DNA of 64,000 nucleotides from Mobula hypostoma (Eukaryota): positions 113,400,001 to 113,464,000 of the forward strand of contig NC_086097.1 in the NCBI RefSeq assembly GCF_963921235.1. The letters run 5' to 3'. The position numbers and the translations under genes are program-made. Each line of letters opens with the position of its first letter. The stretch's first letter is position 1. This document shows, piece after piece, positions 1 through 58,596 of the stretch. The notes beneath the pieces were generated by a model. The model made no database searches. It was not told where the DNA came from and saw only the letters and a list, made by a program, of their open reading frames with translations.

Positions 1-376
1 ACCATTTAAATGAAAGTTGAGTAATATGATCAATTAAGGGAAAAAATTAGTCTTAAATAGATGTTTGTGTTTACAAGTAATTTTAATCCCAAGATATGAA
101 AAATAATTATTAATCAATTTAAACGGAAGGTTATGATACAAGGGAAGTTGCTTATTAATCCGGAAAAGTTCACTCTTACTGAGATTTAACTTGTAACCGG
201 AAAAGAAACTAAATTGTGCTAATAAATCTAAAGCAGCAGGGATAGATTTTTGAGGATTAGAAATATATAAAAGTAAGTCATCAGCATAAAGTGATACTTT
301 ATGAGACTTTAAGCCCCAAGTTATCCCAATAATATTTGGAGATTCTCGAATAGCAATTGCAAGAGATTCTAATGCA

Positions 377-1751: not shown

Positions 1752-4111
1752 AGATTCTAATGCAATGTCAAATAATAAAGGACTAAGAGGACAACCTTGT
1801 CTAGTACCTCGAGAAAGAGGGGAAAAGGGTGAACTTAAAGAGTTAGTACGAACTGAGGCCATAGGAGAATGATATAACAATTTAATCCAGGATATAAATT
1901 TCGAGCTAAAATTAAACATTTCAAGCACCTTAAATAAGTAAGGCCATTCTACTCTGTCAAAGGCTTTTTCAGCATCTAAAGAAATAACTCACTCAGGAAC
2001 ATTTTGTGAAGGAGTATAAACAATATTTAAGAGTGTACGAATGTTATAGAAAGAGTAACGACCTTCAATAAAACCCGTTTCGTCTTCCGAGATAATACAA
2101 GGAAGTGCTTTTTCTAATCTGTTTGCTAATAATTTAGAAAAAATTTTAGGATCAACATTTAATAAAGATATTGGTCTATAAGATGCACATTGAGCAGGAT
2201 CTTTATCCTTCTTTAATATTAGAGAAATTGACACTCTATAGAAGGATTCGGGAAGTTTACCAAGTTTTAATGAAGCCTCCAGAACCCTAAAAAACCAAGG
2301 GATTAATGAAGGTGCAAAAAATTTATAAAATTCTGCAGTAAACTCATCAGGGCCAGGAGCTTTCCCCAGGTTCATAGAAAAAATAACATTCTTAATCTCA
2401 TCAGTGGTAATGGGAGTATCTAGCATAGAGGATATATCCTGTGAAATCTTAGGGAAATCTAGGTTATCTAAAAAGTCATTCATATATTTAGAGTCTCGTA
2501 AAGACTCATTGAGATAAGGAGGAATAAAAATCAAAAAAGGCTTGATTAATCTCAGCATGATCAAGTATCAGTTGATCATTTTGATTATAAATCTGATTAA
2601 TTTGAAAATTAGTATAATTAGTCTTCAACTGATTAGCCAACAGTTACCAACTTTGTCACTATGTACATAAAATTCACTTCTTGTTTTCTTTAATTGATTT
2701 ACAATCGAGGACGAAAGTAATAAACTGTGTTCCATTTGAAGTTCAGTTCTTTGTTTATACAACTCCTCAGAGGGAGCTGTAACATATTTCTTATCAATTT
2801 CCTTAATCTTGTCCACAATTACCAGCTCCTCCTGCATCAGCTTCTTCCTCAAAGCAGCAGAATATGAGATAATCTGACCACGAGTCATATTATAAGTATC
2901 CCAAAGGATGTTCATAGAAATATTTTCTGTATAGTTGATTGTAAAAAAAAAGATCAATCTGTTCATTCATAAAGTTAACAAAATCCAAGTCCTGAAGCAA
3001 CAACGAATTAAAACGCCATTGTCTATTATTTTGTGTATTGGCCTGAATTTTAATAGAAAGCTTAAGTGGAGCATGATCCGAAATGGTTATAGAGTCATAA
3101 TCACATTTAACCACTGAAGAAATAAGACGAGAGTCAATAAAAAAATAATCAATTCTTGAATAGGAATGGTGAATGTGAAAAAAAAGAAAAATCTTTTTCC
3201 TGAAGATGCAAAAAACGCCAAATGACCGTCAACCCAGAATCAAAGAGGAATGAGTTAATCAAAGTTGCAGATTTATTGGGTAAGGTCCGTAAAGGAGCCG
3301 AACGGTCCAAAACTGGAGATAAACAAGTATTAAGATATCCGCCCCAGATCAATGAAAACTCATTCAAATTCAGGAACAGATTAAATAGTGATTTATAAAA
3401 TTCCAGACAGTCCATATTGGGAGCATAAATGTTAACCAAAACTACCTTTTTATTAAAGAGTAGACCACTAACCAATAGAAATCTACCATTCGGATCATGA
3501 ATAATATTATGTTGTACAAAAGTAACTGAGGGGCCTATAAAAATAGAGAGACCTCGAATCTTAGTGTTAGAGTTTGAATGGAACTGTTTACCCTTCCAAA
3601 ATTTAAAAAAACGTAGTCTGTCCCCCCTTCGCACATGGGTCTCTTGTAAAAATAGAACATGTGCTTTAAGTCTCCGGAATACTTTAAAACTTTTTTCCTT
3701 TTAATTGGATGATTAAGACCGTTAGTATTTCAAGAGACAAAATTAATAATAGACTCCATAAACCCTAAAGTCAACCCGCAAAAAAAAGGATTGACAATAG
3801 GTTCGACCCACGAACCCGGAAAGGGAACAGAACAAACAAGAGATAATGGGAAGGAGAACACAACCAATGCTTCAGTAATGTAAATAGCCCAAGAAGAAAA
3901 AAAAACTAAAAAGTGAAGCCCCTCCCACCACCCCCCACCCCATGACCCCAAAGCTAAATCTAAAGCAGAACAGCCAGAAAGAAGCAAGCACTAAGACTAC
4001 CCCTATGACTTCCGATAGACGCTCACTAAAAAAAAGTGTAAGTATAAAAAAGATCAGCTAGAGTTATAAAGCAGTAAAGGAATAAAAAAAAGTAGACCAA
4101 TTAAGACAAAC

Positions 4112-7100
4112 ACAAAGGAGAAAAGTAAAAGTGGCAGGCCGACAAATCCAGGGCAAGCATTAAAAAGGGCCACTTTTCAACATAATTGTACAAGGGCTAA
4201 GAGAGTTGTGAAAGAGCACCTGAAGGCTTTATGTGTCAATGCAAGGAGCATTCGTAATAAGGTGGATGAATTGAAAGTGCAGATTGTTATTAATGATTAT
4301 GATATAGTTGGGATCACAGAGACATGGCTCCAGGGTGACCAGGGATGGGAGCTCAACGTTCAGGGATATTCAATATTCAGGAGGGATAGACATGAAGGAA
4401 GGGGAGGTAGGGTGGCGTTGCTGGTTAAAGAAGAGATTAACGCAATAGAAAGGAAGGACATAAGCCGGGAAGATGTGGAATCGATATGGGTAGAGCTGCG
4501 TAACACTAAGGGGCAGAAGACGCTGGTGGGAGTTGTGTACAGGCCACCTAACAGTAGTAGTGAGGTCGGAAATGGTATTAAACAGGAAATTAGAAATGTG
4601 TGCAATAAAGGAACAGCAGTTATAATGGGTGACTTCAATCTACATGTAGACTGGGTGAACCAAATTGGTAAAGGTGCTGAGGAAGAGGATTTCTTGGAAT
4701 GTATGCGGGATGGTTTTTTGAACCAACATGTCGAGGAACCAACTAGAGAGCAGGCTATTCTGGACTGGGTTTTGAGCAATGAGGAAGGGTTAATTAGCGA
4801 TCTTGTCGTGAGAGGCCCCTTGGGTAAGAGTGACCATAATATGGTGGAATTCTTCATTAATATGGAGAGTGAGATAGTTCATTCAGAAACAAAGGTTCTG
4901 AACTTAAAGAGGGGTAACTTTGAAGGTATGAGACGTGAATTAGCTAAGACAGACTGGCAAATGACACTTAAAGGATTGACGGTGGATATGCAATGGCAAG
5001 CATTTAAAGGTTGCATGGATGAACTACAACAATTGTTCATCCCAGTTTGGCAAAAGAATAAATCAAGGAAGGTAGTGCATCCGTGGCTGACAAGAGAAAT
5101 TAGGGATAGTATCAATTCCAAAGAAGTAGCATGCAAATTAGCCAGAGAAAGTGGCTCACCTGAGGACTGGGAGAAATTCAGAGTTCAGCAGAGGAGGACA
5201 AAGGGCTTAATTAGGAAAGGGAAAAAAGATTATGAGAGAAAACTGGCGGGGAACATAAAAACGGACTGTAAAAGCTTTTATAGATATGTAAAAAGGAAAA
5301 GACTGGTAAAGACAAATGTAGGTCCCCTGCAGACAGAAACAGGTGAAATTGATTATGGGGAGCAAGGACATGGCAGACCAATTGAATAATTACTTTGGTT
5401 CTGTCTTCACTAAGGAGGACATAAATAATCTTCCAGAAATAGTAAGGGACAGAGGGTCCAGTGAGATGGAGGAACTGAGTGAAATACATGTTAGTAGGGA
5501 AGTGGTGTTAGGTAAATTGAAGGGATTGAAGGCAGATAAATCCCCAGGGCCAGATGGTCTGCATCCCAGAGTGCTTAAGGAAGTAGCCCAAGAAATAGTG
5601 GATGCATTAGTGATAATTTTTCAAAACTCGTTAGATTCTGGACTAGTTCCTGAGGATTGGAGGGTGGCTAATGTAACCCCACTTTTTAAAAAAGGAGGGA
5701 GAGAAAAACCGGGGAATTATAGACCGGTTAGCCTAACATCGGTGGTGGGGAAACTGCTGGAGTCAGTTATCAAGGATGTGATAACAGCATATTTGGAAAG
5801 CGGTGAAATGATCGGACAAAGTCAGCATGGATTTGTGAAAGGAAAATCATGTCTGACGAATCTCATAGAATTTTTTGAGGATGTAACTAGTAGAGTGGAT
5901 AGGGGAGAACCAGTGGATGTGGTATATTTGGATTTTCAAAAGGCTTTTGACAAGATCCCACACAGGAGATTAGTGTGCAAACTTAAAGCACACGGTATTG
6001 GGGGTAAGGTATTGGTGTGGGTGGAGAATTGGTTAGCAGACAGGAAGCAAAGAGTGGGAATAAACGGGACCTTTTCAGAATGGCAGGCGGTGACTAGTGG
6101 GGTACCGCAAGGCTCAGTGCTGGGACCCCAGTTGTTTACAATATATATTAATGACTTGGATGAGGGAATTAAATGCAGCATCTCCAAGTTTGCGGATGAC
6201 ACGAAGCTGGGTGGCAGTGTTAGCAGTGAGGAGGATGCTAAGAGGATGCAGGGTGACTTGGATAGGTTGGGTGAGTGGGCAAACTCATGGCAGATGCAAT
6301 TTAATGTGGATAAATGTGAAGTTATCCACTTTGGTGGCAAAAATAGGAAAACAGATTATTATCTGAATGGTGGCTGATTAGGAAAAGGGGAGGTGCAACG
6401 AGACCTGGGTGTCATTATACACCAGTCATTGAAAGTGGGCATGCAGGTACAGCAGGCTGTGAAAAAGGTGAATGGTATGCTGGCATTTATAGCGAGAGGA
6501 TTCGAGTACAGGAGCAGGGAGGTACTACTGCAGTTGTACAAGGCCTTGGTGAGACCACACCTGGAGTATTGTGTGCAGTTTTGGTCCCCTAACCTGAGGA
6601 AAGACATCTTTGCCATAGAGGGAGTACAAAGAAGGTTCACCAGATTGATTCCTGGGATGGCAGTACTTTCATATGAAGAAAGACTGGATGAACTGGGCTT
6701 GTAGTCATTGGAATTTAGAAGATTGAGGGGGGATCTGATTGAAACGTATAAGATCCTAAAGGGATTGGACAGGCTAGATGCAGGAAGATTGTTCCCGATG
6801 TTGGGGAAGTCCAGAACGAGGGGTCACAGTTTGAGGATAGAGGGGAAGCCTTTTAGGACCGAGATTAGGAAAAACTTCTTCACACAGAGAGTGGTGAATC
6901 TGTGGAATTCTCTGCCACAGGAAACTGTTGAGGCCAGTTCATTGGCTATGTTTAAGAGGGAGTTAGATATGGCCCTTGTGGCTACAGGGGTCAGGGGGTA
7001 TGGAGGGAAGGCTGGGGCGGGGTTCTGAGTTGGATGATCAGCCATGATCATAATAAATGGCGGTGCAGGCTCGAAGGGCCGAATGGCCTACTCCTGCACC

Positions 7101-7126
7101 TATTTTCTATGTTTCTATGTTTCTAT
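4112..7126 (+). mobile_element. Young CR1 LINE, 5'-truncated, ORF2 disrupted, inserted in the L1 inter-ORF region
   Basis: APE and RT motifs (ITETW, YRPP, GVPQGSVLGP, FADD). Frameshift near 5343, stops at 6375 and 6702. 3' stem-loop GGTGCAGG...CCTGCACC and (TTTCTATG)n tail. Confidence 0.96.
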
Positions 7127-8487
7127 ATAATACAAAGAAAAAGCCAGTAAATATAAAGAAAACCGTAACGAACAACAGACCCTATGATTAAACAAAAAAA
7201 AGAAACGAGATAATTAACATAGACTAGTTAGGAAAAACTACAAAAAGTATATTTGAAAACTACAAAATTTAAGGCCTCAAAGGAAATAAGTGAAATGATG
7301 CTGAGGGAATAACCATCCAGAATCCCCAGGGAAAAAAAAAGGAATGACGCAGTTGAAAAAAAGTTTGGCAATCATATTAATTAACCAAAAATAAACTTTT
7401 CTGCCCATATAAAGCAAAAAAAAACCCAACAGATTAACAGCCTCCGGTCAAACGGAGATAATTAAAAATTAAGATTAAGATGTTGAAGGTGAAAATTGAT
7501 CCAGGTAACCCTGGGTATCCGATGGAGAAACAAAAAAATGGGGAGCCACATCAAGCGTGTGAATCCTTAAACGCTCTGGGTAAAGCAGCACTGGTTTTAA
7601 ATCCATCTTGTAGAGTTCCGACATCACAGATCTGTAATGAACCCGTTGATCCCGAATCTGTTTACTGAAGTCTTCCACGAATCGGAAATGAAGATCCAAA
7701 AAATCAATGTAACCTTTAGATCGAGCGAATCGAAGCAATTTCTCCTTGTCTTGAAAGTAATGAAATCGTAAAATGACATGCCGAGGTTTATCTGACTTAA
7801 GACGAATATGATGGAACTCTGTGAGCCCGGTCCAATAATGGTGGTTGGTCAGGAAATACGGTGGGAAATGCATCTTTTAAAAGTTGAGAAAAAAACTTTA
7901 TAGGGTTGTCAGATTCAGCAGCTTCACGAACACTAATAATTCGAATATTCTGCCGTCGCATTCTGGATTCTAAGTCAGAGTTTTTAAAAGTCAGAAAGTC
8001 AAGTTTTTTCTTCATTACAGTAATTGTTTCTTCAATTTTCCCCATCTTGAGTTCATTTTGTTGCGTGGATTTTTGAAGATTAAATATAGCAGACTGATGT
8101 TCCGTGATAGATGTTTGCATTTTATCGATTGCATCTGCAATTTTCTGGAAATTAATTGAAATTTCCGCACGAATCAGCTCCGTTATAGAGGTTGAAATTT
8201 CCGTTTGAATTAGATCCGATATAGCTTTCAGAGTTAACGGTGGTTCAGTCGGAGGACAATCGGTACCTTTCGGTCTAACCGGAGGTTTGCTGTCTTTCCC
8301 ATTTTCCCCGTTCTTAGACATAGCAGACCGTAAAAGCATCCAAATATCAAAAAATTTGTTTCAAAGTATTATAAAAGTCGATGCCTTAATGGTTAGCTTA
8401 AATATAGCTGATCATAGGAAAAAAACTCAGAGGTAATGGAGCGAGTCAAAAACACGACTTCACTCCATGAGCTCTCCCGGAAGTCTC

Positions 8488-8892
8488 GGGCTACTTCCTT
8501 AAGCACTCTGAGATGCAGACCATCTGGCCCTGGGGATTTATCTGCCTTTAATCCCTTCAATTTACCTAATACCACTTCTCTACTAACATGTATTTCACTC
8601 GGTTCCTCCTTCTCACTAGACCCTCTGTCCTCTACTATTTTCGGAAGATTATTTATGTCCTCCTTAGTGAAGACAGAACCAAAGTAGTTATTCAATTGGT
8701 CTGCCATGTCCTTGTTCCCCATAATCAATTCACCTGTTTCTGTCTGTAAGGGACCTATATTTGTCTTAACCAATCTTTTTCTTTTCACATATCTATAAAA
8801 GCTTTTACAGTCAGTTTTTATGTTCCCTGCCAGTTTTCTCTCATAATCTCTTTTCCCTTTCCTAATTAAGCCCTTTGTCCTCCTCTGCTGGA
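8488..8892 (-). mobile_element. CR1 ORF2 fragment (the 5' part of a copy split by the L1)
   Basis: QQRRTKGLIRKGK...KSPGPDGLH matches the other CR1 copies. It abuts the L1 5' end at 8487/8488. Confidence 0.9.
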
Positions 8893-17480: not shown

Positions 17481-19630
17481 AAAGCCATTCGGTAGGACAG
17501 TTGAGGAACAGTGGAATACTTTCAAAGAGATTTTTCACAGTGCCCAACAAAAGTATATTCCAGTCAAAAGTAAGGACAGTAAGTGTGGGGAGAGCCAGCC
17601 TTGGATAACTAAGGAAATAAAAGATAGTATCAAATTAAAAGCTCATTTGTACAAAGTCGCAAAGAGTAGTGGAGGCTGGAGGATTGGGAAAACTTTAAAA
17701 AGCAAAAAGAACAACTAAACAAGAAATAAGGAAAAGGAAGATAGAGTATGAAAGTAAATTAGCACAAAATATAAACAGATAGCAAAAGTTTTTATAAATA
17801 TACAAAGCAGAAGAGGGTGGCTAAAGTCAACGTAGGTCGCTTTGAAGACGACAAGGGGAAATTGATATTAACATAGAAACATAGAAAATAGGTGCAGGAG
17901 TAGGCCATTCGGCCCTTCGAGCCTGCACCGCCATTTATTATGATCATGGCTGATCATCCAACTCAGAACCCAGCCTTCCCTCCATACCCCCTGACCCCTG
18001 TAGCCACAAGGGCCATATCTAACTCCCTCTTAAACATAGCTAATGAACTGGCCTCAACAGTTTGCTGTGGCAGAGAATTCCACAGATTCACCACTCTCTG
18101 TGTGAAGAAGTTTTTCCTAACCTCGGTCCTAAAAGGCTTCCCCTCTATCCTCAAACTGTGACCCCTCGTTCTAGACCTCCCCAACATCGGGAACAATCTT
18201 CCTGCATCTAGCCTGTCCAATCCCTTTAGGATCTTATACGTTTCAATCAGATCCCCCCTCAATCTTCTAAATTCCAACGAGTACAAGCCCAGTTCATCCA
18301 GTCTTTCTTCATATGAAAGACCTGCCATCCCAGGAATCAATCTGGTGAACCTTCTTTGTACTCCCTCTATGGCAAAGATGTCTTTCCTCAGATTAGGGGA
18401 CCAAAACTGCACACAATACTCCAGGTGTGGTCTCACCAAGGCCTTGTACAACTGCAGTAGTACCTCCCTGCTCCTGTACTCGAATCCTCTCGCTATAAAT
18501 GCCAGCATACCGTTCGCCTTTTTCACCGCCTGCTGTACCTGCATGCCCACTTTCAATGACTGGTGTATAATGACACCCAGGTCTCGTTGCACCTCCCCTT
18601 TTCCTAATCGGCCACCATTCAGATAATAATCTGTTTTCCTATTTTTGCCACCAAAGTGGATAACTTCACATTTATCCACATTAAATTGCATCTGCCATGA
18701 GTTTGCCCACTCACCCAACCTATCCAAGTCACCCTGCATCCTCTTAGCATCCTCCTCACTGCTAACACTGCCACCCAGCTTCGTGTCATCCGCAAACTTG
18801 GAGATGCTGCATTTAATTCCCTCATCCAAGTCATTAATATATATTGTAAACAACTGGGGTCCCAGCACTGAGCCTTGCGGTACCCCACTAGTCACCGCCT
18901 GCCATTCTGAAAAGGTCCCGTTTATTCCCACTCTTTGCTTCCTGTCTGCTAACCAATTCTCCACCCACACCAATACCTTACCCCCAATACCGTGTGCTTT
19001 AAGTTTGCACACTAATCTCCTATGTGGGACCTTGTCAAAAGCCTTTTGAAAATCCAAATATACCACATCCACTGGTTCTCCCCTATCCACTCTACTAGTT
19101 ACATCCTCAAAAAATTCTATGAGATTCGTCAGACATGATTTTCCTTTCACAAATCCATGCTGACTTTGTCCGATCATTTCACCGCTTTCCAAATGTGCTG
19201 TTATCACATCCTTGATAACTGACTCCAGCAGTTTCCCCACCACCGACGTTAGGCTAACTGGCCTATAATTCCCCGGTTTCTCTCTCCCTCCTTTTTTAAA
19301 AAGTGGGGTTACATTAGCCACCCTCCAATCCTCAGGAACTAGTCCAGAATCTAATTGGGTGATAAGGAAATGACTGAGGCATTGAACGACTATTTTGTGT
19401 CGGTCTTCACGGTGGAGGAAAGTCTAACATGCCAAAGAATAATGTTATGGATGAAATGGGAGGTAAGGACCTAGATAAAATTACTGTCAATAAAGAGATA
19501 GTGATGAGCAAACTAGAGGGCCTGAAGGTAGATAAGTCGCCTGGTCCTGATGGGACACATCCCAGGGTGCTGAGGGAATTGGCGGGGGTTATAGTAGCCC
19601 CGTTGGTAATCGTTTACCAAAACTCTACGT
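17481..19630 (+). mobile_element. Older CR1 subfamily fragment, split by the young CR1 at 17870-19354
   Basis: PWITKEIK...FYKY on the left continues as DKEM..LNDYFVSVFT...DKSPGPDG on the right (ORF 19429-19749). Confidence 0.8.
17870..19354 (-). mobile_element. Young CR1, 5'-truncated to the RT domain, frame open
   Basis: ORF 17963-19321 is nearly identical to the C-terminus of the 999-aa ORF. (CATAGAAA)n tail at the left end. Confidence 0.96.
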
Positions 19631-20335: not shown

Positions 20336-23232
20336 GGCTGGCTGGTGGCGCAATGACATCGGCGCCGGACCCGGGAGTGGAGGTTCCCGGGTTCAAAACC
20401 AGTCGGATCCACTCCCGAGAACACTTTCCATCCATGCCGGGTTTAGTGTCGAGATCGCAACTCCACCTCGTAAAATAGAAACATAGAAAATAGTTGCAGG
20501 AGTAGGCTATTCGGCCCTTCGAGCCTGCACCGCCATTCAGTATGATCATGATTGATCATCCAACTCAGAACCCTGTACCTGCCTTCTCTCCATACCCCCT
20601 GATCCCTGTAGCCACAAGGGCCATATCTAACTCCCTCTTAAATATAGCCAATGAACTGGCCTCAACTGTTTCCTGTGGCAGAGAATTCCACAGATTCACC
20701 ACTCTCTGTGTGAAGAAGTTTTTCCTCATCTCGGTCCTAAAAGGCTTCCCCTTTATCCTCAAACTGTGACCCCTCGTTCTGGACTTCCCCAACATCAGGA
20801 ACAATCTTCCTGCATCTAGCCTGTCCAATCCCTTTAGGATTTTATACGTTTCAATGAGATCCCCCCTCAATCTCCTAAAGTATAAGCCTAGTCGATCCAG
20901 TCTTTCTTCATATGAAAGTCCTGCCAACCCAGGAATCAATCTGGTGAACCTTCTTTGTACTCCCTCTATGGCAAGAATGTCTTTCCTCCTCAGATTAGGG
21001 GACCAAAACTGCACACAATACTCCAGGTGTGGTCTCACCAAGGCCTTGTACAACTGCAGTAGTACCTCCTTGCTCCTGTACTCGAATCCTCTTGCTACGA
21101 ATGCCAGCATACCATTCGCCTTTTTCACCACCTGCTGTACCTGCATGCCCACTTTCAATGACTGGTGTACAATGACACCCAGGTCTCGTTGCACCTCCCC
21201 TTTTCCCAATCGGCCACCATTCAGATAATAATCTGTTTTCCTGTTCTTGCCACCAAAGTGGATAACCTCACATTTATCCACATTAAATTGTATCTGCCAT
21301 GAATTTGCCCACTCACCTAACCTATCCAAGTCACTCTGCATCCTCTTAGCATCCTCCTCACAGCTAACATTGCCACCCAGCTTCATGTCATCCGCAAACT
21401 TGGAGATGCTGCATTTAATTCCCTCATCTAAGTAATTAATATATATTGTAAACAACTGGGGTCCCCGCACTGATCCTTGCGGTACCCCACTAGTCACTGC
21501 CTGCCATTCCGAAAAGGTCCCATTTATTCCCACTCTTTGCTTCCTGTCTGCCAACCAATTCTCTATCCACAGCAATACCTTACCCCCAATACCGTGTGCT
21601 TTAAGTCTGCACACTAATCTCCTGTGTGGGATCTTGTCAAAAGCCTTTTGAAAATCCAAATATACCACATCCACTGGTTCTCCCCTATCCACTCTACTAG
21701 TTACATCCTCAAAAAATTCTATGAGATTCGTCAGACATGATTTTCCTTTCACAAATCCAAGATGACTTTGTCCGATCATTTCACGGCCTTCCAAATGTGC
21801 TGTTCTCACATCTTTGATAACTGACTCTAGCATTTTCCCCACCACCGATGTCAGGCTTACCGGTCTATAATCCCCCGGTTTCTCTCTCCCTCCTTTTTTA
21901 AAAAGTGGGGTTACATTAGCCACCCTTCAATCCTCAGGAACTGGTCCAGAATCTAAAGAGTTTTGAAAAATTATCACTAATGCATCCACTATTTCTTGGG
22001 CTACTTCCTTAAGCACTCTGGGATGCAGACCATCTGGCCCTGGGGATTTATCTGCCTTTAATCCTTTCAATTTACCTAACACCACTTCTCTACTAACATG
22101 TATTTCCCTCAGTTCCTCCATCTCACTAGACCCTCTGTCCCCTACTATTTCCGGAAGATTATTTATGTCCTCCTTAGTGAAGACAGAACCAAAGTAGTTA
22201 TTCAATTGGTCTGCCATGTCCTTGTTCCCCATGACCAATTCACCTGTTTCTGACTGTAAGGGACCTACATTTGTCTTAACCAATCTTTTTCTTTTCACAT
22301 ATTTATAAAAGCTTTTACAGTCAGTTTTTATGTTCCCTGCCAGCTTTCTCTCATAATCTTTTTTCCCTTTCCTAATTAAGCCCTTTGTCCTCCTCTGCTG
22401 GACTCTGAATTTCTCCCTGTCCTCAGGTGTGCCGCTTTTTCTGGATAATTTGTATGCTTCTTCTTTGGAATTGATACTATCCCTAATTTCTCTTGTCAGC
22501 CACGGGTGCACTACCTTCCCTGGTTTATTCTTTTGCCAAACTGGGATGAACAATTGTTGTAGTTCATCCATGCAATCTTTAAATGCTTGCCATTGCATAT
22601 CCACCGTCAATCCTTTAAGTGTCATTTGCCAGTCTATCTTTGCTAATTCACGTCTCATACCTTCAAAGTTACCCTTCTTTAAGTTCAGAACCTTTGTTTC
22701 TGAATTAACTATGTCACTCTCCATCTTAATGAAGAATTCCACCATATTATGGTCACTTTTGCCCAAGGGGCCTCTCACGACAAGATTGCTAACGAACCCT
22801 TCCTCATTGCTCAAAACCCAGTCTAGAATTGTCTGCTCTCTCGTTGGTTCCTCGACATGTTGGTTCAGAAAACTACCCCGTGTACACTCCAAGAAATCCT
22901 CTTCCTCAGCACCCTTACCAATTTGGTTCACCCAATCTATATGTAGATTGAAGTCACCCATTATAACTGCTGTTCCTTCATTGCATGCATTTTTAATTTC
23001 CTGTTTAATGCCATCCCCGACCTCACTACTACTGTTAGGTAGTAGTGGAATAAAGGGGGAAATGCTGCCAAAATGTCTGTGTGAGGAATGGTGCGCAACA
23101 CAGTCTCTCTCTCGCTCCACGCCTTGTAAAAGCCATGAAAAAGACATCATCACGGACGCACACACGCAGACGCACATGCACAGACGCGAACACACGCACA
23201 GACTCACATGCATGCAGGTACACACAAAAAAA
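20336..23232 (+). mobile_element. tRNA-derived SINE split by a CR1 (head 20336-20474, tail about 23049-23232)
   Basis: A box TGGCGCAATGAC and B box GGTTCAAAACC. The body is homologous to the reverse-strand SINE at 38085-38290. Assignment of the tail is tentative. Confidence 0.6.
20475..23040 (-). mobile_element. CR1 of a sister subfamily, 5'-truncated within the endonuclease
   Basis: ORFs 21927-23270 and 20565-21923 are separated by one TGA (W to stop). CR1 tail at the left end. Confidence 0.95.
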
Positions 23233-24940: not shown

Positions 24941-26149
24941 TTTGGAATCCATCGAGAATACTTAAGTACTTTGTTTCAAAAGTTCTAAGTACATTTATTA
25001 TCAAAGTATTATCAGTGTTTCCTAAAAAGTGGTGGGAGACATCAGTAAAAGTAGAATTTGTGAAAATGATTGATGGGGTGATAATAAACATATGGATACT
25101 GCGTGGGTAAGCAGTCTGGGTCAGGTTTCTTTGGAAATTTTGGGTGGGAGTTATGAAGATAGAGGTGCTCGGCAGAATTGCTAATTTTCCCTAATACAGT
25201 TGTCCCCAACCTCCGGGCAGCGAAGCATGCAGGGGTGCAGTGGTAGCCGGAACACACCCAGCACATCTTTAAGAAAAAAGCTAAAATAAACAAGCAACCA
25301 CTGCCCTAACAGATGCCAGAAGATTGGAAAGTGATAAATGTGACACACTTAATCAAGAATTGGTGACTATGGATTAATCCCTTTAACAATGGTGGTGGAT
25401 GAGGTTCTAGAAATAATAACCAAGGAAAATGTTACCAGGTACTTGGAGTAGTTTACATTTTAGTAGAAATGTTGTTTCACTCTTTCTTCAACAAGTGTTA
25501 TTCATTTTGTATTTTCCAATTTTCTGGCACCTCCCTGCATCAAGAGAAGAGTGAACATTATGTCAAGTTCTCCGTAATCACCACACCCCTCACTCTAAAC
25601 TCAATAATCATCCAGGATTCAAGCTAACTGATCCAGGGAATTTATGTCCTTCAGCAAAGTTTTGTTAAAGGGTAGAACACATCTAACTATTCTAATTGTC
25701 TCTTTTGATGAAATAACATGGACTATTGAAAGGACCATATGTTGTCAGTATGGAGGAAGGTAGAGAACTTGACTATCTCTATAAAACTCAGGTCAAGCCA
25801 CAATTAGAGTGCTGCACGAGCCACAAATGGCACATTTTAGAAAGGATGTCAATGTCGACACAGTAGACGAAATTTACAAGTGTTGCCAAAATGTTACAAG
25901 AATCATGGATTTTTATTACAAGGTTACATTGTAACAATTGGGGTCATTCTTAAAGAGAAGAGGGTTGAGGGGATAATCTGAGACATTTCCAAAAATAACA
26001 ATAGTACAAGTAAGGTAGAAAAAGAAAACTAGCTACCACTTGCTGACATATCAAGGATTCAAGTGGGAAGTTTCAAATTTGAAGCAAGAAACAGAGGGAA
26101 TGTGAGAGAGGATTTTTCTAACACAATTAAAATTTGGAATTTGTTCCAC

Positions 26150-28100
26150 ATAGAACATAGAAATGTTGTGCCGACCATGTAACCTACTCTGCAAACTGCC
26201 TAGAACTACCCTCTCTTAAAAGACCCTATTGTATTCACTTCCACCACCGTCGCCAGCTGTGCATTCTAGGCACCCACCACTCCCTGTGGGGAAAAACTTA
26301 CCCCTAACATGTCCTCTGTACCTACCTCCAAGCACCTTAAAACTATGGCCCCTCGTGTTAGCCATTTCAGTCTTGGGAAAAAGCCTCTGGCTACCCACAT
26401 GATCAATGCCTCTCATCATCCATCACTCCAAGGAGAAAAAGCCAAGTTCACTCAACCTATTCAGTTAAGGCACACTCTCCAATCCAGGCAACAACCTTGT
26501 AAATCTCCACCGCACACTCGCTATAGTATGCACATCCTTCCTGCAGTGAGGTAATCAGAACTGAACACAGTATTCCAAGATGTGGGTCTGACCAAGTTCT
26601 TATATAGCTGTAACATTGCCTCATGGCTCTAGATGAATGCCAACACACCATATGCCTTCTTAACAACAGTGTCAACCTGCCGCAGCAGCTTTGAGTGTCC
26701 TATGGACACAAACACAAAGATCTCTCTGATCTTCCACACTGCCTAGTCTTACTATTAATACTATACTCTGTCTTCAAATTTGACCTACCAAAATGAACCA
26801 CTTCACACTTATCTAGGTTGAATTCCAACTGCCACTTCTCAGCCCAGTTCTGCATCCTATCAATGTCCCACTGTAACCTCTGACAACACTCCAGACTATC
26901 CACAACACCCTCAACTTTTGCGTCATCAGCAAACTTACTAACCCATCCTTCTACTTCTTCATCCAGGTCATTTATAAAAATCACAAAGAGTGGTCCTAGA
27001 ACAGATCCCTGCGGAACACCACTGGTCACCACCCTCCATATAGAATACGAACCATCTACAACCACCTGTGGTTACCACCTTCCGTGAGCAAGCCAATTCT
27101 GGATCCACAAGACAAGGTCTCCTTGGATTCCATACCTCCTTACTTTCTGAATGAGCCTTGCACGGGGAATCTTATCAAATGCCTTGCTGAAATCCATATA
27201 CATTACATCCACTGCTCTACCTTCATCAATATAACACACAAAAAAATGCTGGTGAGCGCAGCAGGCGAGGCTGACAAAACGTCGACTGTACCTCTTCCTA
27301 TAGATGCTGCCTAGCCTGCTGCGTTCACCAGCATTTATGTGTGTTGCTTGAATTTCCAGCATCTGCAGATTTCCTCGTGTTTGCCTTCATCAGTGTGTTT
27401 TGTTACATCCTCAAAGAATTCAATCAGGCGCATAAGGGACGACCTGCCTTGACAAAGCTATGTGGACTAATCAGATTATGTCTCTCCAAATGCCCATGTA
27501 TCCTGCCTCTCAGGATCTTCAACAACTTGCCCACCACTGAGGTAAGACTCACTGATCTATAATTCGTACTCCCTTTCTTGCACAAGGGAACAATATTTGC
27601 AACCCTCCAATCCTCCAGTACTTCTCCTGTCCCTATTGTTGATGCAACGATCATTACCAGGGGCTCAGCAATCTCCTCCCTCGCATCCCACAGTAGCCTG
27701 GGGTATATCCTGCCTGGTCCTGGCGACTTATCTAATCTAATGAATTTTTAAAAGCTCCAGCACATCCTCTTTCCTAATGTCTATCTGCTCAAGTGTTTCA
27801 GTCCACTGTAAGTCATTCCCACAACTGCCAAGGTCCTTTTCCCTGGTGGAAAATGAATCGAAGTATTCATTAAGTACCTCTGCTACCTCCTCCAACTCCG
27901 TGCATGTTTCCACTATCACGCCTGATTGGTCCTGTTCTCACACGACTCATCCTCTTTAGCTTCACATACTTGTAGAATGCCTTGGGGTTTTCCTTAATCC
28001 TGCTCATCAAGGTCATGGCCCCTTCAAGCTCTCCTAATTTAATTTTTAAGCTCCTTCCTGGCAACCTCATAATTTTCTAGAACTCCATCAGTACTTATCT
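26150..28100 (-). mobile_element. Older decayed CR1 containing a Penelope-type insertion
   Basis: ORF fragments GVPQGSVLGP, FADD, YMDFSKAFDK, IKENPKAFYKYV. catagaacatagaa tail near 26150. Confidence 0.88.
27231..27383 (+). mobile_element. Penelope-type terminal fragment with a short 5' inversion and TSD
   Basis: TSD CCTTCATCA at 27220-27228 and 27384-27392. The first ~40 nt are an inverted copy of the body. Same family as 30478-30707. Confidence 0.75.
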
Positions 28101-47965: not shown

Positions 47966-49745
47966 TCTAACTAAATTCCTTGTTGTCAATATCCACTGCT
48001 TTGCCTTCATCAACTTCCCTGGTAACTTCCTTGAAAAACGCTTTAAGATTGGTTAGACATGACCTACTGCGCACAAAGCCAGGTTGACCATCCCTAATTA
48101 GACCCTGTCTAGCCGAATACTTGTACATTTGGATCCTTAGAATACTTTCCAATAACTTACCTGCTACTGATGTTAGGCTTACTGATCCATTATTTCCTGG
48201 CTTGTTGTTAAAGCCTTTCATAAATAACGAGCAACATTAGCTGTCCTCCAATCCTCGGGCTCCTCTCCCATGACTAAGGATGTTTTAAATAGTGCCCTGC
48301 AGTTTCTGCACTAGCCTCCCAAAGAGTCGAAGGGAACGTCTTGTCAAGACCTGGGAATGTATCCACCCTAATTTTTCTCAAACACATTTTCTGTGATCTG
48401 TATAGGGTCCATGACCTCACTGCTGCTTTGCCTCACTTCTAGAGACTCCCTGTCCATCTCCTGAGTAAATATAGATGCAAATAAAGCATTTAAGATCTAA
48501 TTTCTTTTTGTTCCTTGCATAGATGACCTCTCAGATATTTGCTCTCCTTTTGCTCTTAATCTATCTGTAGAAGCTGTAGTTGTTCTTCACCTTGTCTGCT
48601 AGAGCAACCTCGTGTCTTTTAATCCCTTTGATTTCCTTCTTAAGTGTTCTCTTGCATTTCTTATACTCAATAACTTCATTTGCTACTTTCTGCCTGTACC
48701 TGCTATTCACCTTCTTCTTAACCATGGCCTCAAGATATCTTGACCACCAAGGATCCTTAAACATATTATCCTTGTGCCTTTTATTCTGACAGGAACATAA
48801 ACTCTATGCTCTCAAAATTTCACTTTTGATAGCCTCTCACTTACCAAGTGCATTTTTGCCAGAAAATAACCCATCCCAATCCAACTTGCCAAATCCTTTC
48901 TGATACCATCAAAAATGGCCTTTCACCAATTTAGAATCTCAACCCAAAGACCAGACCTATCCTTCTCCGTAATTATCTTGAAACTAATGGCGCGATGATC
49001 TCCAGGTGCAAAGTGTTCCCCCACACAAAGTTCTGATACCTGCCCCATCACATTTCCTAAGTAGAAGATCTGATATTACTCTTTCTGGTTGGGACCTCCA
49101 TGTACTGATTAAGGAAACTTTTCTGAGTACATTTGACAGACTCTATCCCATCCTGACCTTTTACAACATGAGAGTCATAGTTAATATGGGGGAAGTTAAA
49201 ATCACGTACCATCGCAACCTTATATTCTTCGCAACTGTCTTCAGTCTCTACAAACTTGCTCCTCTAAATCCTGTGAACTGTTGGGTGGTCTATAATATAA
49301 TCCCTCTAATGTTGTCATCCCTTTCTCATTCCTCATTTCTACCCATATAACCTCCACTCTGTTCTGTTGGAGCACTGCCGTCACATTTCCCTGACTCATC
49401 ATGCCACCATTCCCCTCTTTAATCTCTCCCATTCTATCATGTCTAAAGAACCGGACCCTAGAACATTGAATGCTGCCCCACTTGCAAACAAGTCTCACTA
49501 ATGTCTACAATGTCACATGCTGATCCATATCCTAAGCTCATCCACCTTTCCTACAATACTCCTTGCATTGAAATGTACACAACTCAGGGCATTGGTCCCA
49601 ACATGCTCAATCTATCATTGCTTACTTTGTACGTAGGCTTAACAACGTCTTTCCCCAAACTACTCCACTATCAGTTCTGGCACTCTGGTTCCCATCCCCC
49701 GCAACTGTAGTCCCTGTGCAGCATTAGCAAACCTTCCGTAAGGAA
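47966..49745 (-). mobile_element. Old CR1 fragment spanning the ORF1/ORF2 junction, EN and early RT
   Basis: Remnants IWVEMRN..YYRPPNS, SVSLTSVAGKLLE and SCLTNL. The junction-like motif GGGGGATGGGAACCAG lies at about 49686-49701. Confidence 0.8.
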
Positions 49746-50259
49746 AGCAGCAACAGTAAGATGGTGACATTTTGTAGGCAGCAAACAAAACTACAAACTA
49801 TTCTATTAATTATACTACTTATAATTATTTGGGAAAGTTTTCTGGACTTTGATCACTGCAATCCACAGCCTGTAATTTCCATTTGGGAGTTGTGTTTTTG
49901 AACCATCTATACAACTTGCTGTTTTTGTGGCATTCTGAAGGATTCAGCGATTAGACTCTCTAGAATGCAGGTACAGCCACAGTGGCCAGTGCTGGAGTGG
50001 ACTTGGGTATGAATTGAAATGGTGGAGCCCAGGCCCGAGAGAGGAAAACAAACTGATATTTAGCTGACAACACTGAGCCAGATAAAAAAAATAATCAAGG
50101 GGTTGAGGCAGAGGTCTTCAGCTCACTAATCCAAGAGGCTTTATTCACTTCAGCACTGAACTGGGTCCGTGGCTGTGGCCTGCAACCATCAGGCTCCTGG
50201 ACCACTTGTAGCACTGGAATTGCTTCGCAGCTGTGGACTGTATGGCTGCATAATTCATG

Positions 50260-53900: not shown

Positions 53901-54155
53901 CAAGGCTTCAGCAGTGTCATTGGTTACTCTTTATAAAATTGCAGCAACATTTTTAATCTCTCTTATACTCCTTGCAACACCATAAAATCAGATTAAAATT
54001 GATGCAAAATGATCTCCTTCTGAAATGTCTCGTTTACTTTTAGATTCAGTAGATAATATAGAAACATAGAAACATAGAAAATAGGTGCAGGAGTAGGCCA
54101 TTCGGCCCTTCGAGCCTGCACCGCCATTTATTATGATCATGGCTGATCATCCAAC

Positions 54156-57155
54156 TCAGAACCCAGCCTTCCCTCCATACCCCCTGACCCCTGTAGCCAC
54201 AAGGGCCATATCTAACTTCCTTTTAAACATAGCTAATGAACTGGCCTCAACAGTTTGCTGTGGCAGAGAATTCCACAGATTCACCACTCTCTGTGTGAAG
54301 AAGTTTTTCCTAATCTCGGTCCTAAAAGGCTTCCCCTCTATCCTCAAACTGTGACCCCTCGTTCTGGACCTCCCCAACATCGGGAACAATCTTCCCGCAT
54401 CTAGCCTGTCCAATCCCTTTAGGATCTTATACGTTTCAATCAGATCCCCCCTCAATCTTCTAAATTCCAACGAGTACAAGCCCAGTTCATCCAGTCTTTC
54501 TTCATATGAAAGACCTGCCATCCCAGGAATCAATCTGGTGAACCTTCTTTGTACTCCCTCTATGGCAAAGATGTCTTTCCTCAGATTAGGGGACCAAAAC
54601 TGCACACAATACTCCAGGTGTGGTCTCACCAAGGCCTTGTACAACTGCAGTAGTACCTCCCTGCTCCTGTACTCGAATCCTCTCGCTATAAATGCCAGCA
54701 TACCGTTCGCCTTTTTCACCGCCTGCTGTACCTGCATGCCCACTTTCAATGACTGGTGTATAATGACACCCAGGTCTCGTTGCACCTCCCCTTTTCCTAA
54801 TCGGCCACCATTCAGATAATAATCTGTTTTCCTATTTTTGCCACCAAAGTGGATAACTTCACATTTATCCACATTAAATTGCATCTGCCATGAGTTTGCC
54901 CACTCACCCAACCTATCCAAGTCACCCTGCATCCTCTTAGCATCCTCCTCACTGCTAACACTGCCACCCAGCTTCGTGTCATCCGCAAACTTGGAGATGC
55001 TGCATTTAATTCCCTCATCCAAGTCATTAATATATATTGTAAACAACTGGGGTCCCAGCACTGAGCCTTGCGGTACCCCACTAGTCACCGCCTGCCATTC
55101 TGAAAAGGTCCCGTTTATTCCCACTCTTTGCTTCCTGTCTGCTAACCAATTCTCCACCCACACCAATACCTTACCCCCAATACCGTGTGCTTTAAGTTTG
55201 CACACTAATCTCCTGTGTGGGACCTTGTCAAAAGCCTTTTGAAAATCCAAATATACCACATCCACTGGTTCTCCCCTATCCACTCTACTAGTTACATCCT
55301 CAAAAAATTCTATGAGATTCGTCAGACATGATTTTCCTTTCACAAATCCATGCTGACTTTGTCCGATCATTTCACCGCTTTCCAAATGTGCTGTTATCAC
55401 ATCCTTGATAACTGACTCCAGCAGTTTCCCCACCACCGACGTTAGGCTAACCGGCCTATAATTCCCCGGTTTCTCTCTCCCTCCTTTTTTAAAAAGTGGG
55501 GTTACATTAGCCACCCTCCAATCCTCAGGAACTAGTCCAGAATCTAACGAGTTTTGAAAAATTATCACTAATGCATCCACTATTTCTTGGGCTACTTCCT
55601 TAAGCACTCTGGGATGCAGACCATCTGGCCCTGGGGATTTATCTGCCTTCAATCCCTTCAATTTACCTAACACCACTTCCCTACTAACATGTATTTCGCT
55701 CAGTTCCTCCATCTCACTGGACCCTCTGTCCCTTACTATTTCTGGAAGATTATTTATGTCCTCCTTAGTGAAGACAGAACCAAAGTAATTATTCAATTGG
55801 TCTGCCATGTCCTTGCTCCCCATAATCAATTCACCTGTTTCTGTTTGCAGGGGACCTACATTTGTCTTTATCAGTCTTTTCCTTTTTACATATCTATAAA
55901 AGCTTTTACAGTCTGTTTTTATGTTCTCTGCCAGTTTTCTCTCATAATCTTTTTTCCCCTTCCTAATTAAGCCCTTTGTCCTCCTCTGCTGAACTCTGAA
56001 TTTCTCCCAGTCCTCAGGTGAGCCACTTTCTCTGGCTAATTTGTATGCTACTTCTTTGGAATTGATACTATCCCTAATTTCTCTTGTCAGCCACGGGTGC
56101 ACTACCTTCCTTGATTTATTCTTTTGCCAAACTGGGATGAACAATTGTTGTAGTTCATCCATGCAACCTTTAAATGCCTGCCATTGCATATCCACCGTCA
56201 ATCCTTTAAGTGTCATTTGCCAGTCTATCTTAGCTAATTCACGACTCATACCTTCAAAGTTACCCCTCTTTAAGTTCAGAACCTTTGTTTCTGAATTAAC
56301 TACGTCACTCTCCATGTTAATGAAGAATTCCACCATATTATGGTCACTCTTACCCAAGGGGCCTCTCATGACAAGATCACTAATTAACCCTTCCTCATTG
56401 CTCAATACCCAGTCCAGAATAGCCTGCTCTCTAGTCGGTTCCTCGACATGTTGGTTCAAAAAACCATCCCGCATACATTCCAAGAAATCCTCTTCCTCAG
56501 CACCTTTACCAATTTGGTTCACCCAGTCTACATGTAGATTGAAGTCACCCATTATAACTGCTGTTCCTTTATTGCACACATTTCTAATTTCCTGTTTAAT
56601 ACCATCTCCGACCTCACTACTACTGTTAGGTGGCCTGTACACAACTCCCACCAGCGTCTTCTGCCCCTTAGTGTTACGCAGCTCTACCCATATCGATTCC
56701 ACATCTTCCCGGCTTATGTCCTTCCTTTCTATTGCGTTAATCTCTTTTTTAACCAGCAACGCCACCCCACCTCCCCTTCCTTCATGTCTATCCCTCCTGA
56801 ATATTGAATATCCCTGAACGTTGAGCTCCCATCCCTGGTCACCCTGGAGCCATGTCTCTGTGATCCCAACTATATCATAATCATTAATAACAATCTGCAC
56901 TTTCAATTCATCCACCTTATTACGAATGCTCCTTGCATTGACACATAAAGCCTTCAGGCGCTCTTTTACAACTCTCTTAGCCCTTTTTAATGCTTGCCCT
57001 GGATTTGTCGGCCTGCCACTTTTACTTTTCCCCTTTGTACTTTTCACTTCTACGCTCACTTTACACCCCTCTGTCTCTCTGCACTGGTTCCCATCCCTCT
57101 GTTGTGAACTAACCTCCTCACACCTAGCCTCTTTAATTTGATTCCCACCCCCCAA
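54156..57155 (-). CDS. CR1 ORF2: APE endonuclease + reverse transcriptase, 999 codons uninterrupted, no N-terminal AUG
   Basis: Motifs CVNARS, GITETW, VYRPP, MGDFN, SDH, YRPVSLTS, LDFQKAFD, GVPQGSVLGP, FADD. The start in the ORF track is TTG; the first ATG is codon 202. Confidence 0.93.
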   Translation of the reverse strand: MGGGNQIKEARCEEVSSQQRDGNQCRETEGCKVSVEVKSTKGKSKSGRPTNPGQALKRAKRVVKERLKALCVNARSIRNKVDELKVQIVINDYDIVGITETWLQGDQGWELNVQGYSIFRRDRHEGRGGGVALLVKKEINAIERKDISREDVESIWVELRNTKGQKTLVGVVYRPPNSSSEVGDGIKQEIRNVCNKGTAVIMGDFNLHVDWVNQIGKGAEEEDFLECMRDGFLNQHVEEPTREQAILDWVLSNEEGLISDLVMRGPLGKSDHNMVEFFINMESDVVNSETKVLNLKRGNFEGMSRELAKIDWQMTLKGLTVDMQWQAFKGCMDELQQLFIPVWQKNKSRKVVHPWLTREIRDSINSKEVAYKLARESGSPEDWEKFRVQQRRTKGLIRKGKKDYERKLAENIKTDCKSFYRYVKRKRLIKTNVGPLQTETGELIMGSKDMADQLNNYFGSVFTKEDINNLPEIVRDRGSSEMEELSEIHVSREVVLGKLKGLKADKSPGPDGLHPRVLKEVAQEIVDALVIIFQNSLDSGLVPEDWRVANVTPLFKKGGREKPGNYRPVSLTSVVGKLLESVIKDVITAHLESGEMIGQSQHGFVKGKSCLTNLIEFFEDVTSRVDRGEPVDVVYLDFQKAFDKVPHRRLVCKLKAHGIGGKVLVWVENWLADRKQRVGINGTFSEWQAVTSGVPQGSVLGPQLFTIYINDLDEGIKCSISKFADDTKLGGSVSSEEDAKRMQGDLDRLGEWANSWQMQFNVDKCEVIHFGGKNRKTDYYLNGGRLGKGEVQRDLGVIIHQSLKVGMQVQQAVKKANGMLAFIARGFEYRSREVLLQLYKALVRPHLEYCVQFWSPNLRKDIFAIEGVQRRFTRLIPGMAGLSYEERLDELGLYSLEFRRLRGDLIETYKILKGLDRLDAGRLFPMLGRSRTRGHSLRIEGKPFRTEIRKNFFTQRVVNLWNSLPQQTVEASSLAMFKRKLDMALVATGVRGYGGKAGF

Positions 57156-57160
57156 CCATT

Positions 57161-58029
57161 CTAGTTTAAAGTCACCTCAGTAGCCCCCGCTAATCTCCCT
57201 GCCAGGATATTGGTCCCCCTAGGATTTAAGTGTAACCCGTCCTTTTTGTACAGGTCACACCTGCGCCAAAAGAGGTCCCAATGATCCAAAAACTTGAATC
57301 CCTGCCCCCTGCTCCAATCCCTCAGCCACGCATTTATCCTCCACCTCATCGCATTCCTACTCTCACTGTCGCGTGGCACAGGCAGTAATCCCGAGATTAC
57401 TACCTTTGCGGTCCTTTTTCTCAACTCCCTTCCTAGCTCCCTATATTCTTCTTTCAGGACCTCATCCCTTTTCCTACCTATGTCATTGGTACCTATATGT
57501 ACCAGGACCTCTGGCTCTTCACCCTCCCACTTCAGGATATCTTGGACACGATCAGAAATATCCCGGACCCTGGCACCAGGGAGGCAAACTACCATCCGAG
57601 TCTCTGGACTGCGTCCACAGAATCGCCTATCTGACCCCCTTACTATCGAGTCCCCTATCACAACTGCCCTCCTCTTCCTTGCCCTACCCTTCTGAGCTAC
57701 AGGGCCAGACTCTGTGCTGGAGGCAGGGCCACTGTCGCTTCCCCCGGGTAAGCTGTCCCCCCCAACAGTACTCAAACAGGAGTAGCTGTTGTTAAGGGGC
57801 ACAGCTGCCGGGGTACTCCCCATCACCTGCCTTTTCCCCTTCCCCCTCCTAACCGTGACCCACTTGTCTGCCTCCCGTGGCCCCGGCGTGACCACCTGCC
57901 TTCCACTCCTCTCTATCACCTCCTCGCTCTCCCTGACCAGACGAAGGTCATCGAGCTGCAGCTCCAGTTCCGTAACGCGGTCCCTTAGGAGCTGCATCTC
58001 GATGCACTTGGCGCAGATGTAGACGTCCG
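57161..58029 (-). CDS. CR1 ORF1 (5'-truncated): zinc finger/leucine zipper + SGNH esterase
   Basis: YICAKC then a coiled coil (LLRDRVTELELQLDDL). SGNH blocks VIGDSIV, LPGA, HIGTND and DGLH. Ends ...EVTLN-TAG. Confidence 0.9.
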
Positions 58030-58596
58030 TATGTGTGTATGTCTCCTGGCAGGAAAATCATATCCTAAGATCCTAACTAATTGCTTGGAAGAGAGGTGAA
58101 AGCTCTATTTCCGTATTGCTCCATGAAGATTCTAAATCTTTACAATTGTCCTAACTGACTATTGTTGGATTTTTTTAGAGGTCAGGAATGAAGCATAAAA
58201 CTTGTTGCTTCATGGTCATTTTATTAAGAGTTGATCAAGGGGAACAGAACAGTGACAAGGGGTTTTTAGTAGTTGATGAAGAGGATCTAAAGATAGCACC
58301 TAGCATAAAACAGCTACTTTTATACCCAAAAAATAAGAACATTCAATAGATAATAATCCAATTAGAAAATACTTATTTAATACTGTAGTAAAGTTAACCA
58401 AGGAGAAAATACTAGCCATTTAATGAAAGAACAAAGAAGCATCCTGAATTATACACAGTAAAGCCTCTAGAGTCATATTAAACTGTTACGTATATAAATG
58501 CTACTTAAAATACAAGCATAATTACAATTAAATGTTGGATCTAACAAAGGTTGATGAGAATATTAATGATTAATTTTTGTTTCTCTTCTATATTAG

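Follow-up and report, generated by a model that had tools for sequence, protein, structure and literature searches.

How the second open reading frame (ORF2) of a CR1 retrotransposon is translated is the question raised by a locus of the ray Mobula hypostoma. The DNA analysed, referred to here as the window, is a whole stretch of 64,000 nucleotides (nt) from contig NC_086097.1 (positions 113,400,001 to 113,464,000). It holds on its minus strand a copy of a CR1 long interspersed nuclear element (LINE), the family of which is termed here the window CR1 family (Table 1). ORF1 of this copy ends GAG GTG ACT TTA AAC TAG, and the heptamer U UUA AAC lies in the X XXY YYZ phase of that frame. Judging from sequence, CR1 ORF2 is probably made by programmed -1 frameshifting on this heptamer, giving an ORF1-ORF2 fusion.

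The original prediction described a phased heptamer at 57170-57164 directly before the ORF1 stop (TAG, 57163-57161) and an ORF2 in the -1 frame, closed upstream by TGA at 57179-57177 and overlapping ORF1 by 16 nt; each of these features was found as described. The -1 frame is open from 57176 to a stop at 54156, and the next codon after a -1 slip is CTA. The first in-frame AUG was correctly placed at 56552, but the codon counts given with it were three too low: counted from CTA, ORF2 has 1002 codons rather than 999, and the AUG is codon 205 rather than 202. The ATG at 57159 does open only an eight-codon peptide in the third frame (MVGGWESN), and a third-frame ATG near the junction occurs in one of 46 other copies. 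The heptamer is the sole canonical in-frame one across the 311-codon ORF1 and 1004-codon ORF2. In the 64 kb, TTTAAACTAG has five matches at ≤1 mismatch with 8.3 expected; a lone heptamer-stop site is thus within chance, and the case rests on conservation.

Table 1. Positions of the CR1 features in the 64-kb window.
Feature	Position	Strand	Support
Young 5'-truncated CR1 LINE copy (ORF1 remnant, junction, ORF2, 3' untranslated region)	54058-58030	-	
ORF1, codons 24-311 of a 311-amino-acid zinc-finger/coiled-coil/SGNH-esterase protein; end Leu-Asn-stop	57161-58030	-	
SGNH/GDSL esterase domain of ORF1	57215-57661	-	Pfam PF13472, E 2.7e-16
Cys-Leu-Pro-Gly-Ala codons of ORF1 with silent-site bias; weak candidate for an RNA element or G-motif partner	57572-57586	-	
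TGA that bounds the -1 frame of ORF2 on its upstream side, two codons before heptamer	57177-57179	-	
Slippery heptamer U UUA AAC, X XXY YYZ phase of ORF1; likely -1 frameshift site	57164-57170	-	
ORF1 stop (TAG), directly 3' of heptamer	57161-57163	-	
AUG-initiated 8-codon ORF (MVGGWESN), third frame; not conserved	57133-57159	-	
Conserved G5-N2-G3-AA motif, 10 nt past heptamer; candidate stimulator	57142-57153	-	
ORF2 (1002 codons, -1 frame) with variable linker, APE endonuclease and reverse transcriptase	54156-57164	-	
AUG-free 72-codon linker, slip site to endonuclease; 34-105 codons in relatives	56949-57164	-	
APE endonuclease, its first motif beginning at 56948 and its Pfam match covering 56900-56340	56340-56948	-	PF03372, E 1.2e-11
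First in-frame ATG of ORF2, codon 205 from CTA, inside endonuclease	56550-56552	-	
Reverse transcriptase domain	54828-55481	-	PF00078, E 1e-33
Further CR1 copy without junction	4112-7131	+	
Further CR1 copy without junction	8484-8890	-	
Further CR1 copy without junction	17870-19354	-	
Further CR1 copy without junction	20472-23040	-	

Comparison with the full-length copies L001 and L011 places the 5' truncation of the window copy at ORF1 codon 24 (~58030); short octamer repeats close its 3' end, near 54058. Full-length ORF1 of the family is 311 amino acids (aa) long (30 fetched copies), a CxxC...CxxC motif is present in full-length copies, and the nearest named ORF1 protein, 98% identical, is itself labelled M. 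hypostoma. An APE endonuclease and reverse transcriptase, a 3' short tandem repeat and frequent 5' truncation are found together with an ORF1 that combines an N-terminal Cys motif/coiled coil with an SGNH esterase and has homologues from rays to birds, as in vertebrate CR1 elements with an esterase ORF1. The family was putatively assigned to CR1 on this architecture and on 40-44% ORF2 identity to bird and turtle elements.

All of the 40 scored genomic matches to 57060-57280 (1069 candidates) were identical over 221 nt. Register and sequence are therefore family-wide, and the alternative allowed for originally, that the family consensus lies in another register and this copy carries an indel, was ruled out. 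Among the 30 fetched copies, ORF2 was open through all 537 codons covered in 20, and no Met preceded the endonuclease motif in 29. In the window CR1 family the downstream ORF thus lies at -1, is open from the heptamer and has no start of its own; the family is young, and a junction of this form is normal for it.

More diverged ray copies were gathered with an unbiased anchor, a pattern on the upstream DGLHLN codons with the window CR1 family excluded (5,245 genome matches). In the first 90 copies listed, all on one contig, 49 had an exact TTTAAACTAR and 71 had it with no more than one mismatch, for the most part at a constant offset; at five control offsets none of the 90 came within one mismatch. 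A second anchor gave mostly chance or reverse transcriptase matches, along with five ORF1 matches bearing the exact heptamer at the same offset. Silent sites were counted in the 46 of these 90 copies with an undamaged ORF1 end. The codon before Leu-Asn encodes five amino acids (Gly 25, Asp 9, Cys 6, Ser 5, Ala 1) and its third base is T in 45 of 46 (background 24%). The terminal Leu codon is TTA in 40/41 (background 12%) and the terminal Asn codon AAC in 38/40 (background 44%); at conserved Asn, Leu and Gly residues close by, the codon used is free to vary. The stop that follows is TAA in 30 copies and TAG in 16. AAT would preserve both the ORF1 Asn and the ORF2 Leu, yet heptamer position 7 is fixed as C, which indicates a constraint at the RNA level. 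When 94 of 141 aligned sequences were grouped into 41 clusters (mean between-cluster identity 56%), the heptamer third positions were the three best-kept among ORF1 codons 135-311, and of the 23 clusters with coverage of the last three codons, 22 had all three silent bases.

Conservation extends to other vertebrates. Among 120 ORF1 homologues listed, 81 carry a DGxH motif and 72 of these end in Leu-Asn; the source labels of the DGxH set include rays, sharks, coelacanth, frogs, turtles, lizards, a snake and a hummingbird. Sequence reaching beyond ORF1 was available for 13 of 55 metagenome loci, the other 42 being dropped as they end earlier or are unaligned there; in L134 and L143, which carry indels, the end of ORF1 was placed manually. 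The ORF2s of the 13 loci resemble named bird proteins. These bird-like loci carry the exact heptamer in 11 cases, followed by TAG, TAA or TGA (the last in L143) and in one by TGC. At the protein level, 25 of 120 named ORF2 models from birds and turtles have FKL followed by xG.G ahead of the endonuclease, none of the 25 with Met at position 5, and the same residues recur in natural frame-shifted proteins (turtle, crane, stingray and unnamed). Since Phe-Lys in one frame and Leu-Asn in the other fix TTTAAAY, the heptamer extends to turtles. The split between rays and birds occurred more than 400 million years ago. Loss of the heptamer among relatives, which would have spoken against the original prediction, was accordingly not found: its silent positions are kept across diverged ray families and bird-like elements.

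The register of ORF2 was surveyed in 87 junctions, 72 of them with a detectable endonuclease start. This start lay in the -1 frame in 40 and in the other frames in 17 and 15, a spread as expected for decayed copies. The -1 frame was open as far as the endonuclease in 29 of the 72, and in 26 of these 29 the endonuclease was in that frame. Across these 26 intact junctions the linkers are 34-105 codons long and unalike in sequence, with stops in the other two frames in 25/26 and 26/26. Before the heptamer, the open stretch of the -1 frame has a median length of five codons (87 junctions); taken with the -1 register, this confines the entry to ORF2 to a narrow zone with the heptamer at its centre. 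In 13 copies a linker of 44-72 codons stays open without any AUG.

Downstream of the slip site, the G5-N2-G3-AA motif is the second conserved feature of the junction. Counted from the first T, G is found at positions 18-22 in 42, 46, 41, 38 and 41 of 46 copies and at positions 25-27 in 41, 38 and 36. ORF2 codons 7 and 9 are GGG in 23/26 and 22/26 (background 33% of Gly), and codon 6 ends in G in 25/26 and codon 8 starts with G in 26/26, the amino acids differing. The 10-nt spacing is likewise seen in bird-like loci. The pattern heptamer-stop-N7-G5-N2-G3-AA has 13,807 exact matches in the genome, compared with 270 for N6 and none for the reversed pattern. The motif looks like an RNA element.

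In the proposed mechanism, most ribosomes would stop at the ORF1 end and release a 311-aa, 35-kDa ORF1 protein (ORF1p). With UUA and AAC occupied by Leu and Asn tRNAs, ribosomes would pause at the following stop and the G motif, the paused tRNAs could re-pair on UUU AAA, and reading would resume at CUA. The minority product would be a fusion of 311 + 1002 residues (~1313 aa, ~149 kDa). U_UUA_AAC, together with G_GGA_AAC and A_AAA_AAC, is listed among the heptamers on which mammalian ribosomes shift most readily (PMC5009743). The gag-pol-like fusion of esterase, endonuclease and reverse transcriptase originally proposed is supported by the heptamer, the register, the fixation of silent sites and the AUG-free start in the window family. 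By elimination, our guess is that the G motif acts as a protein-bound sequence element and not as a local stem; a further guess is that ORF1p multimers take up the fusion in a fixed proportion, in the way that Gag takes up Pol.

Several observations weigh against frameshifting at this site. Eighteen of the 41 clusters are uncovered at the last three codons, where coverage favours intact ends, and copies as well as clusters are related, so that the counts depend on one another and are given without a p-value. A spacing of 10 nt exceeds the 5-8 nt usual between slip site and structure (PMC3919603), and a common fold was not detected: RNAalifold predicts zero pairs on 33 junctions, folding z-scores fall below -2 relative to shuffles in just 3/26 junctions (window copy -0.29), a two-tier quadruplex is predicted at the junction in just 5/26, the window copy included, and the G motif has no common long-range downstream partner among 26 long copies. 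An AUG precedes the endonuclease in 13 of the 26 intact junctions, many bird and turtle ORF2 models begin at a linker Met, an AUG lies two bases after the stop in 5 of 13 bird-like loci with UAAUG in one, and UAAUG occurs in four of the first 100 listed ray matches. The absence of an ORF2 AUG, as originally described, thus applies to the window CR1 family and fails as a CR1-wide rule. A natural family with esterase, endonuclease and reverse transcriptase in one full-length frame was not found in a weak search (5 matches), and the human L1 ORF2 start tolerates any sense codon (PMC1965478).

The folding results also bear on the nature of the stimulator. No stem-loop or pseudoknot was found 5-8 nt downstream, four foldable G-tracts at the slip site are not present in all members, and no C-rich partner is common to the copies, pseudoknots not having been modelled explicitly. 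The hairpin or two-tier quadruplex originally suggested can form in the window CR1 family, but it is not common to relatives, and a conserved hairpin, pseudoknot or quadruplex was therefore rejected as the stimulator. A further candidate partner was the Cys-Leu-Pro-Gly-Ala site of ORF1, ~415 nt upstream. Its motif was found in 39 of 87 junctions, with TGC in 39/39, CTC in 33/39 and GCC in 34/39. A similar codon bias was seen in 46 metagenome motifs, and TGC CTC CCN GGN GCC is strongly preferred in ray and bird-like loci alike. This site pairs with the G motif at -17.9 kcal/mol in the window copy. It was not accepted as a partner, as many columns are similarly biased and no covariation was seen by eye; the bias could also reflect a local hairpin.

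Termination-reinitiation would place the restart a few bases past the ORF1 stop, at an AUG or non-AUG codon, with the G motif positioning the ribosome. It is reported for SART1 and L1, SART1 using a downstream element (PMC3708506, PMC5972666, PMC2881922), and it would suit the coincidence of the ORF1 stop with the ORF2 start region. It would suit, too, the UAAUG of the four listed ray matches and of locus L142. An in-frame AUG near the ORF1 stop is, however, found in just 4/46 ray copies, none at all occurring in 27, and it is absent in the window CR1 family; in the bird-like loci an adjoining AUG is present in 6/13. ORF2 codon 5 is TTG in 9, ATG in 4 and ACG in 2 of 26 copies, but TGG in 7, with the window CR1 family among them, and Ser in 15 of 25 bird models. 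UGGGA, TURBS motif 1 of calicivirus-type reinitiation, is located 30-100 nt upstream of the junction in 20/46 copies and would suit a restart; it coincides with Trp-Asp codons, and the window CR1 family lacks it at this position. Reinitiation also leaves the invariant T three codons before the stop and the fixation of TTA and AAC unexplained, and we regard it as unlikely to be the main route to ORF2. It is possible, alone or alongside frameshifting, in some lineages. Locus L142 (3004-3015), the ray family with UAAUG and L202 have UAAUG over the ORF1 stop, the AUG in the ORF2 frame and the heptamer intact; in such lineages the two processes could coexist.

Two other accounts are very improbable. 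In the case of splicing, an exon with an upstream AUG would be joined to an acceptor at or just before the junction, Phe-Lys-Leu being kept by two-frame coding. An AG does lie within the short open -1 stretch upstream in 34/46 copies, and public gene models enter ORF2 at the junction point; against this, the 25 nt upstream contain 41% pyrimidines and no pyrimidine tract, the stop is TAA and not an AG acceptor in 30/46, no acceptor is constant, the residues after FKL are free to vary, and heptamer position 7 is fixed as C although T there would be silent in either frame. No sense-strand intron ending at the junction was seen among 15 listed of 45 joints in four putative-RNA contig sets, a result with no bearing on expression or splicing. 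Equally hard to credit is a role outside translation (RNA packaging, dimerisation through the palindromic TTTAAA, or a C-terminal Leu-Asn required by the esterase), with ORF2 translated from a downstream AUG. The invariant dipeptide at the ORF1 end and a G before the heptamer in 36/46 copies, which lengthens the palindrome, would agree with it; in other families, including the window CR1 family, that base is A or C. In the window copy, a start at the downstream AUG loses 116 of 187 Pfam-matched endonuclease residues and both first motifs, and the open AUG-free linkers of 13 copies are left to be accounted for.

Programmed -1 frameshifting on U UUA AAC has close parallels in viruses. The heptamer and its phase are identical, and the overlap similarly short, in coronaviruses and arteriviruses (infectious bronchitis virus, U_UUA_AAC) and in retroviruses (gag-pol of avian leukosis virus) (PMC5009743, PMC11835228). 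In these systems, as in CR1, a structural protein is encoded upstream and a polymerase downstream. CR1 differs in that no pseudoknot or stem-loop was detected 5-8 nt downstream, the G motif standing at 10 nt, in the stop directly after the heptamer, in being a LINE and in having no protease known to cut the fusion. The CR1 site would thus work like a retroviral or coronaviral -1 site without a canonical 3' structure. Frameshifting in arterivirus nsp2 depends on a short motif ~10 nt downstream and on no structure. There, stimulation is provided in trans by a homopolymer-binding protein (nsp1-beta with poly(C)-binding protein); that motif is C-rich and directs -2/-1 shifts, whereas the CR1 motif is G-rich and its binding partner hypothetical.

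The original turtle and chicken CR1 papers reportedly described ORFs that overlap or lie close together, and they may have put forward a frameshift. Like CR1, mammalian L1 (reinitiation) and SART1 (UAAUG coupling) have a bicistronic LINE RNA, and their ORF2 output depends on ORF1 translation (PMC3708506, PMC5972666, PMC2881922). They give a free ORF2 protein (ORF2p), whereas in the window CR1 family 204 codons pass before the first in-frame AUG, and a slippery heptamer is conserved. Outside SART1 and L1, ORF2 production from bicistronic LINE RNAs has been called unclear (PMC3708506, PMC2881922). A -1 frameshift has been stated for Dictyostelium TRE5-A and TRE3-A (PMC5911963), APE LINEs of the L1 clade that differ from CR1 in clade and host and lack an esterase ORF1; for Paramecium elements +1 frameshifting or reinitiation was suggested (PMC5405496), and in HeT-A a frameshift is needed inside gag. 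Vertebrate CR1_7 (type IVB, PMC4120745), whose ORF1 combines zinc finger/leucine zipper and esterase, has the same ORF1/ORF2 architecture. The word 'frameshift' is absent from the main text of that paper and of the esterase structure paper (PMC3905857), and CR1 is not mentioned in the examined part of the Atkins review. The literature search returned no report of CR1 frameshifting, the original turtle and chicken papers and Kapitonov and Jurka 2003 being outside its reach.

Elsewhere in the window, four further copies of the window CR1 family (93-99.5% identical) lack the junction. The second long copy, 4112-7131 (+), is truncated ~125 nt 3' of it, in agreement with the original statement that one intact junction is present. 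The copies at 4112-8890 sit among ORF fragments that by eye resemble L1/Tx1-type ORF2 or ORF1 (305-1378 (+), 1989-3700 (-) and 7797-8360 (-)). At 26001-28000 and 48001-50000 the GC skew is strongly negative, resembling that seen in LINE copies on the minus strand, yet these segments have no blastn match to the window CR1 family.

Among distant esterase ORF1s with a match that ends before the last profile position, 9/49 end in Gly-Asn and 7/49 in Leu-Asn, the rest being scattered. A number of unnamed ones (P0115, P0183, P0191, P0200, P0208, P0223, P0228, P0230, P0238, P0244 and P0248) end in Gln/Ser-Gly-Asn, Lys-Asn or Asp-Phe, and these ends may fit other known slippery heptamers; from the protein ends alone, Gln-Gly-Asn would fit G GGA AAC. 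For the Gly-Asn and Lys-Asn enders, viral contigs and plasmids yielded no DNA and genome contigs two uninformative loci. The distant cluster P0277 (223 unnamed proteins ending Ser-Leu-Asn) contains one member fused in frame via FKLVGKGG into an endonuclease 38% identical to ORF2. Host-gene models with the CR1 ORF1 or junction as exons were also encountered (P0026, P0064, P0067, P0119, P0120, P0280 and P0281); in P0280 esterase and endonuclease are joined in frame. CR1 ORF1 sequence under bacterial labels (P0021, a Pseudomonas aeruginosa protein, and L177, a Providencia contig) is probably host contamination of public assemblies. As a tentative and rather doubtful joint reading, jawed-vertebrate CR1 may have been Gag-Pol-like since the ray-bird split, an unstructured G5-N2-G3 being bound by a host G-tract protein or ORF1p and other heptamers serving distant esterase LINEs, so that frameshifting would be an ancient module travelling with the esterase ORF1.

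CR1 is the main repeat of birds, making up 11.8% of the chicken assembly, and the 13,807 exact junction matches show it to be abundant in M. hypostoma too. A defined seven-base site makes the question of how its ORF2 is produced answerable by one reporter experiment. If frameshifting is true, the CR1 replicase would be a fusion to ORF1p, and the annotation and expression of ORF2p would have to change; a new account of cis-preference and stoichiometry would follow, CR1 would be exposed to host factors acting on frameshifting, and the junction would represent a natural frameshift stimulator without evident structure.

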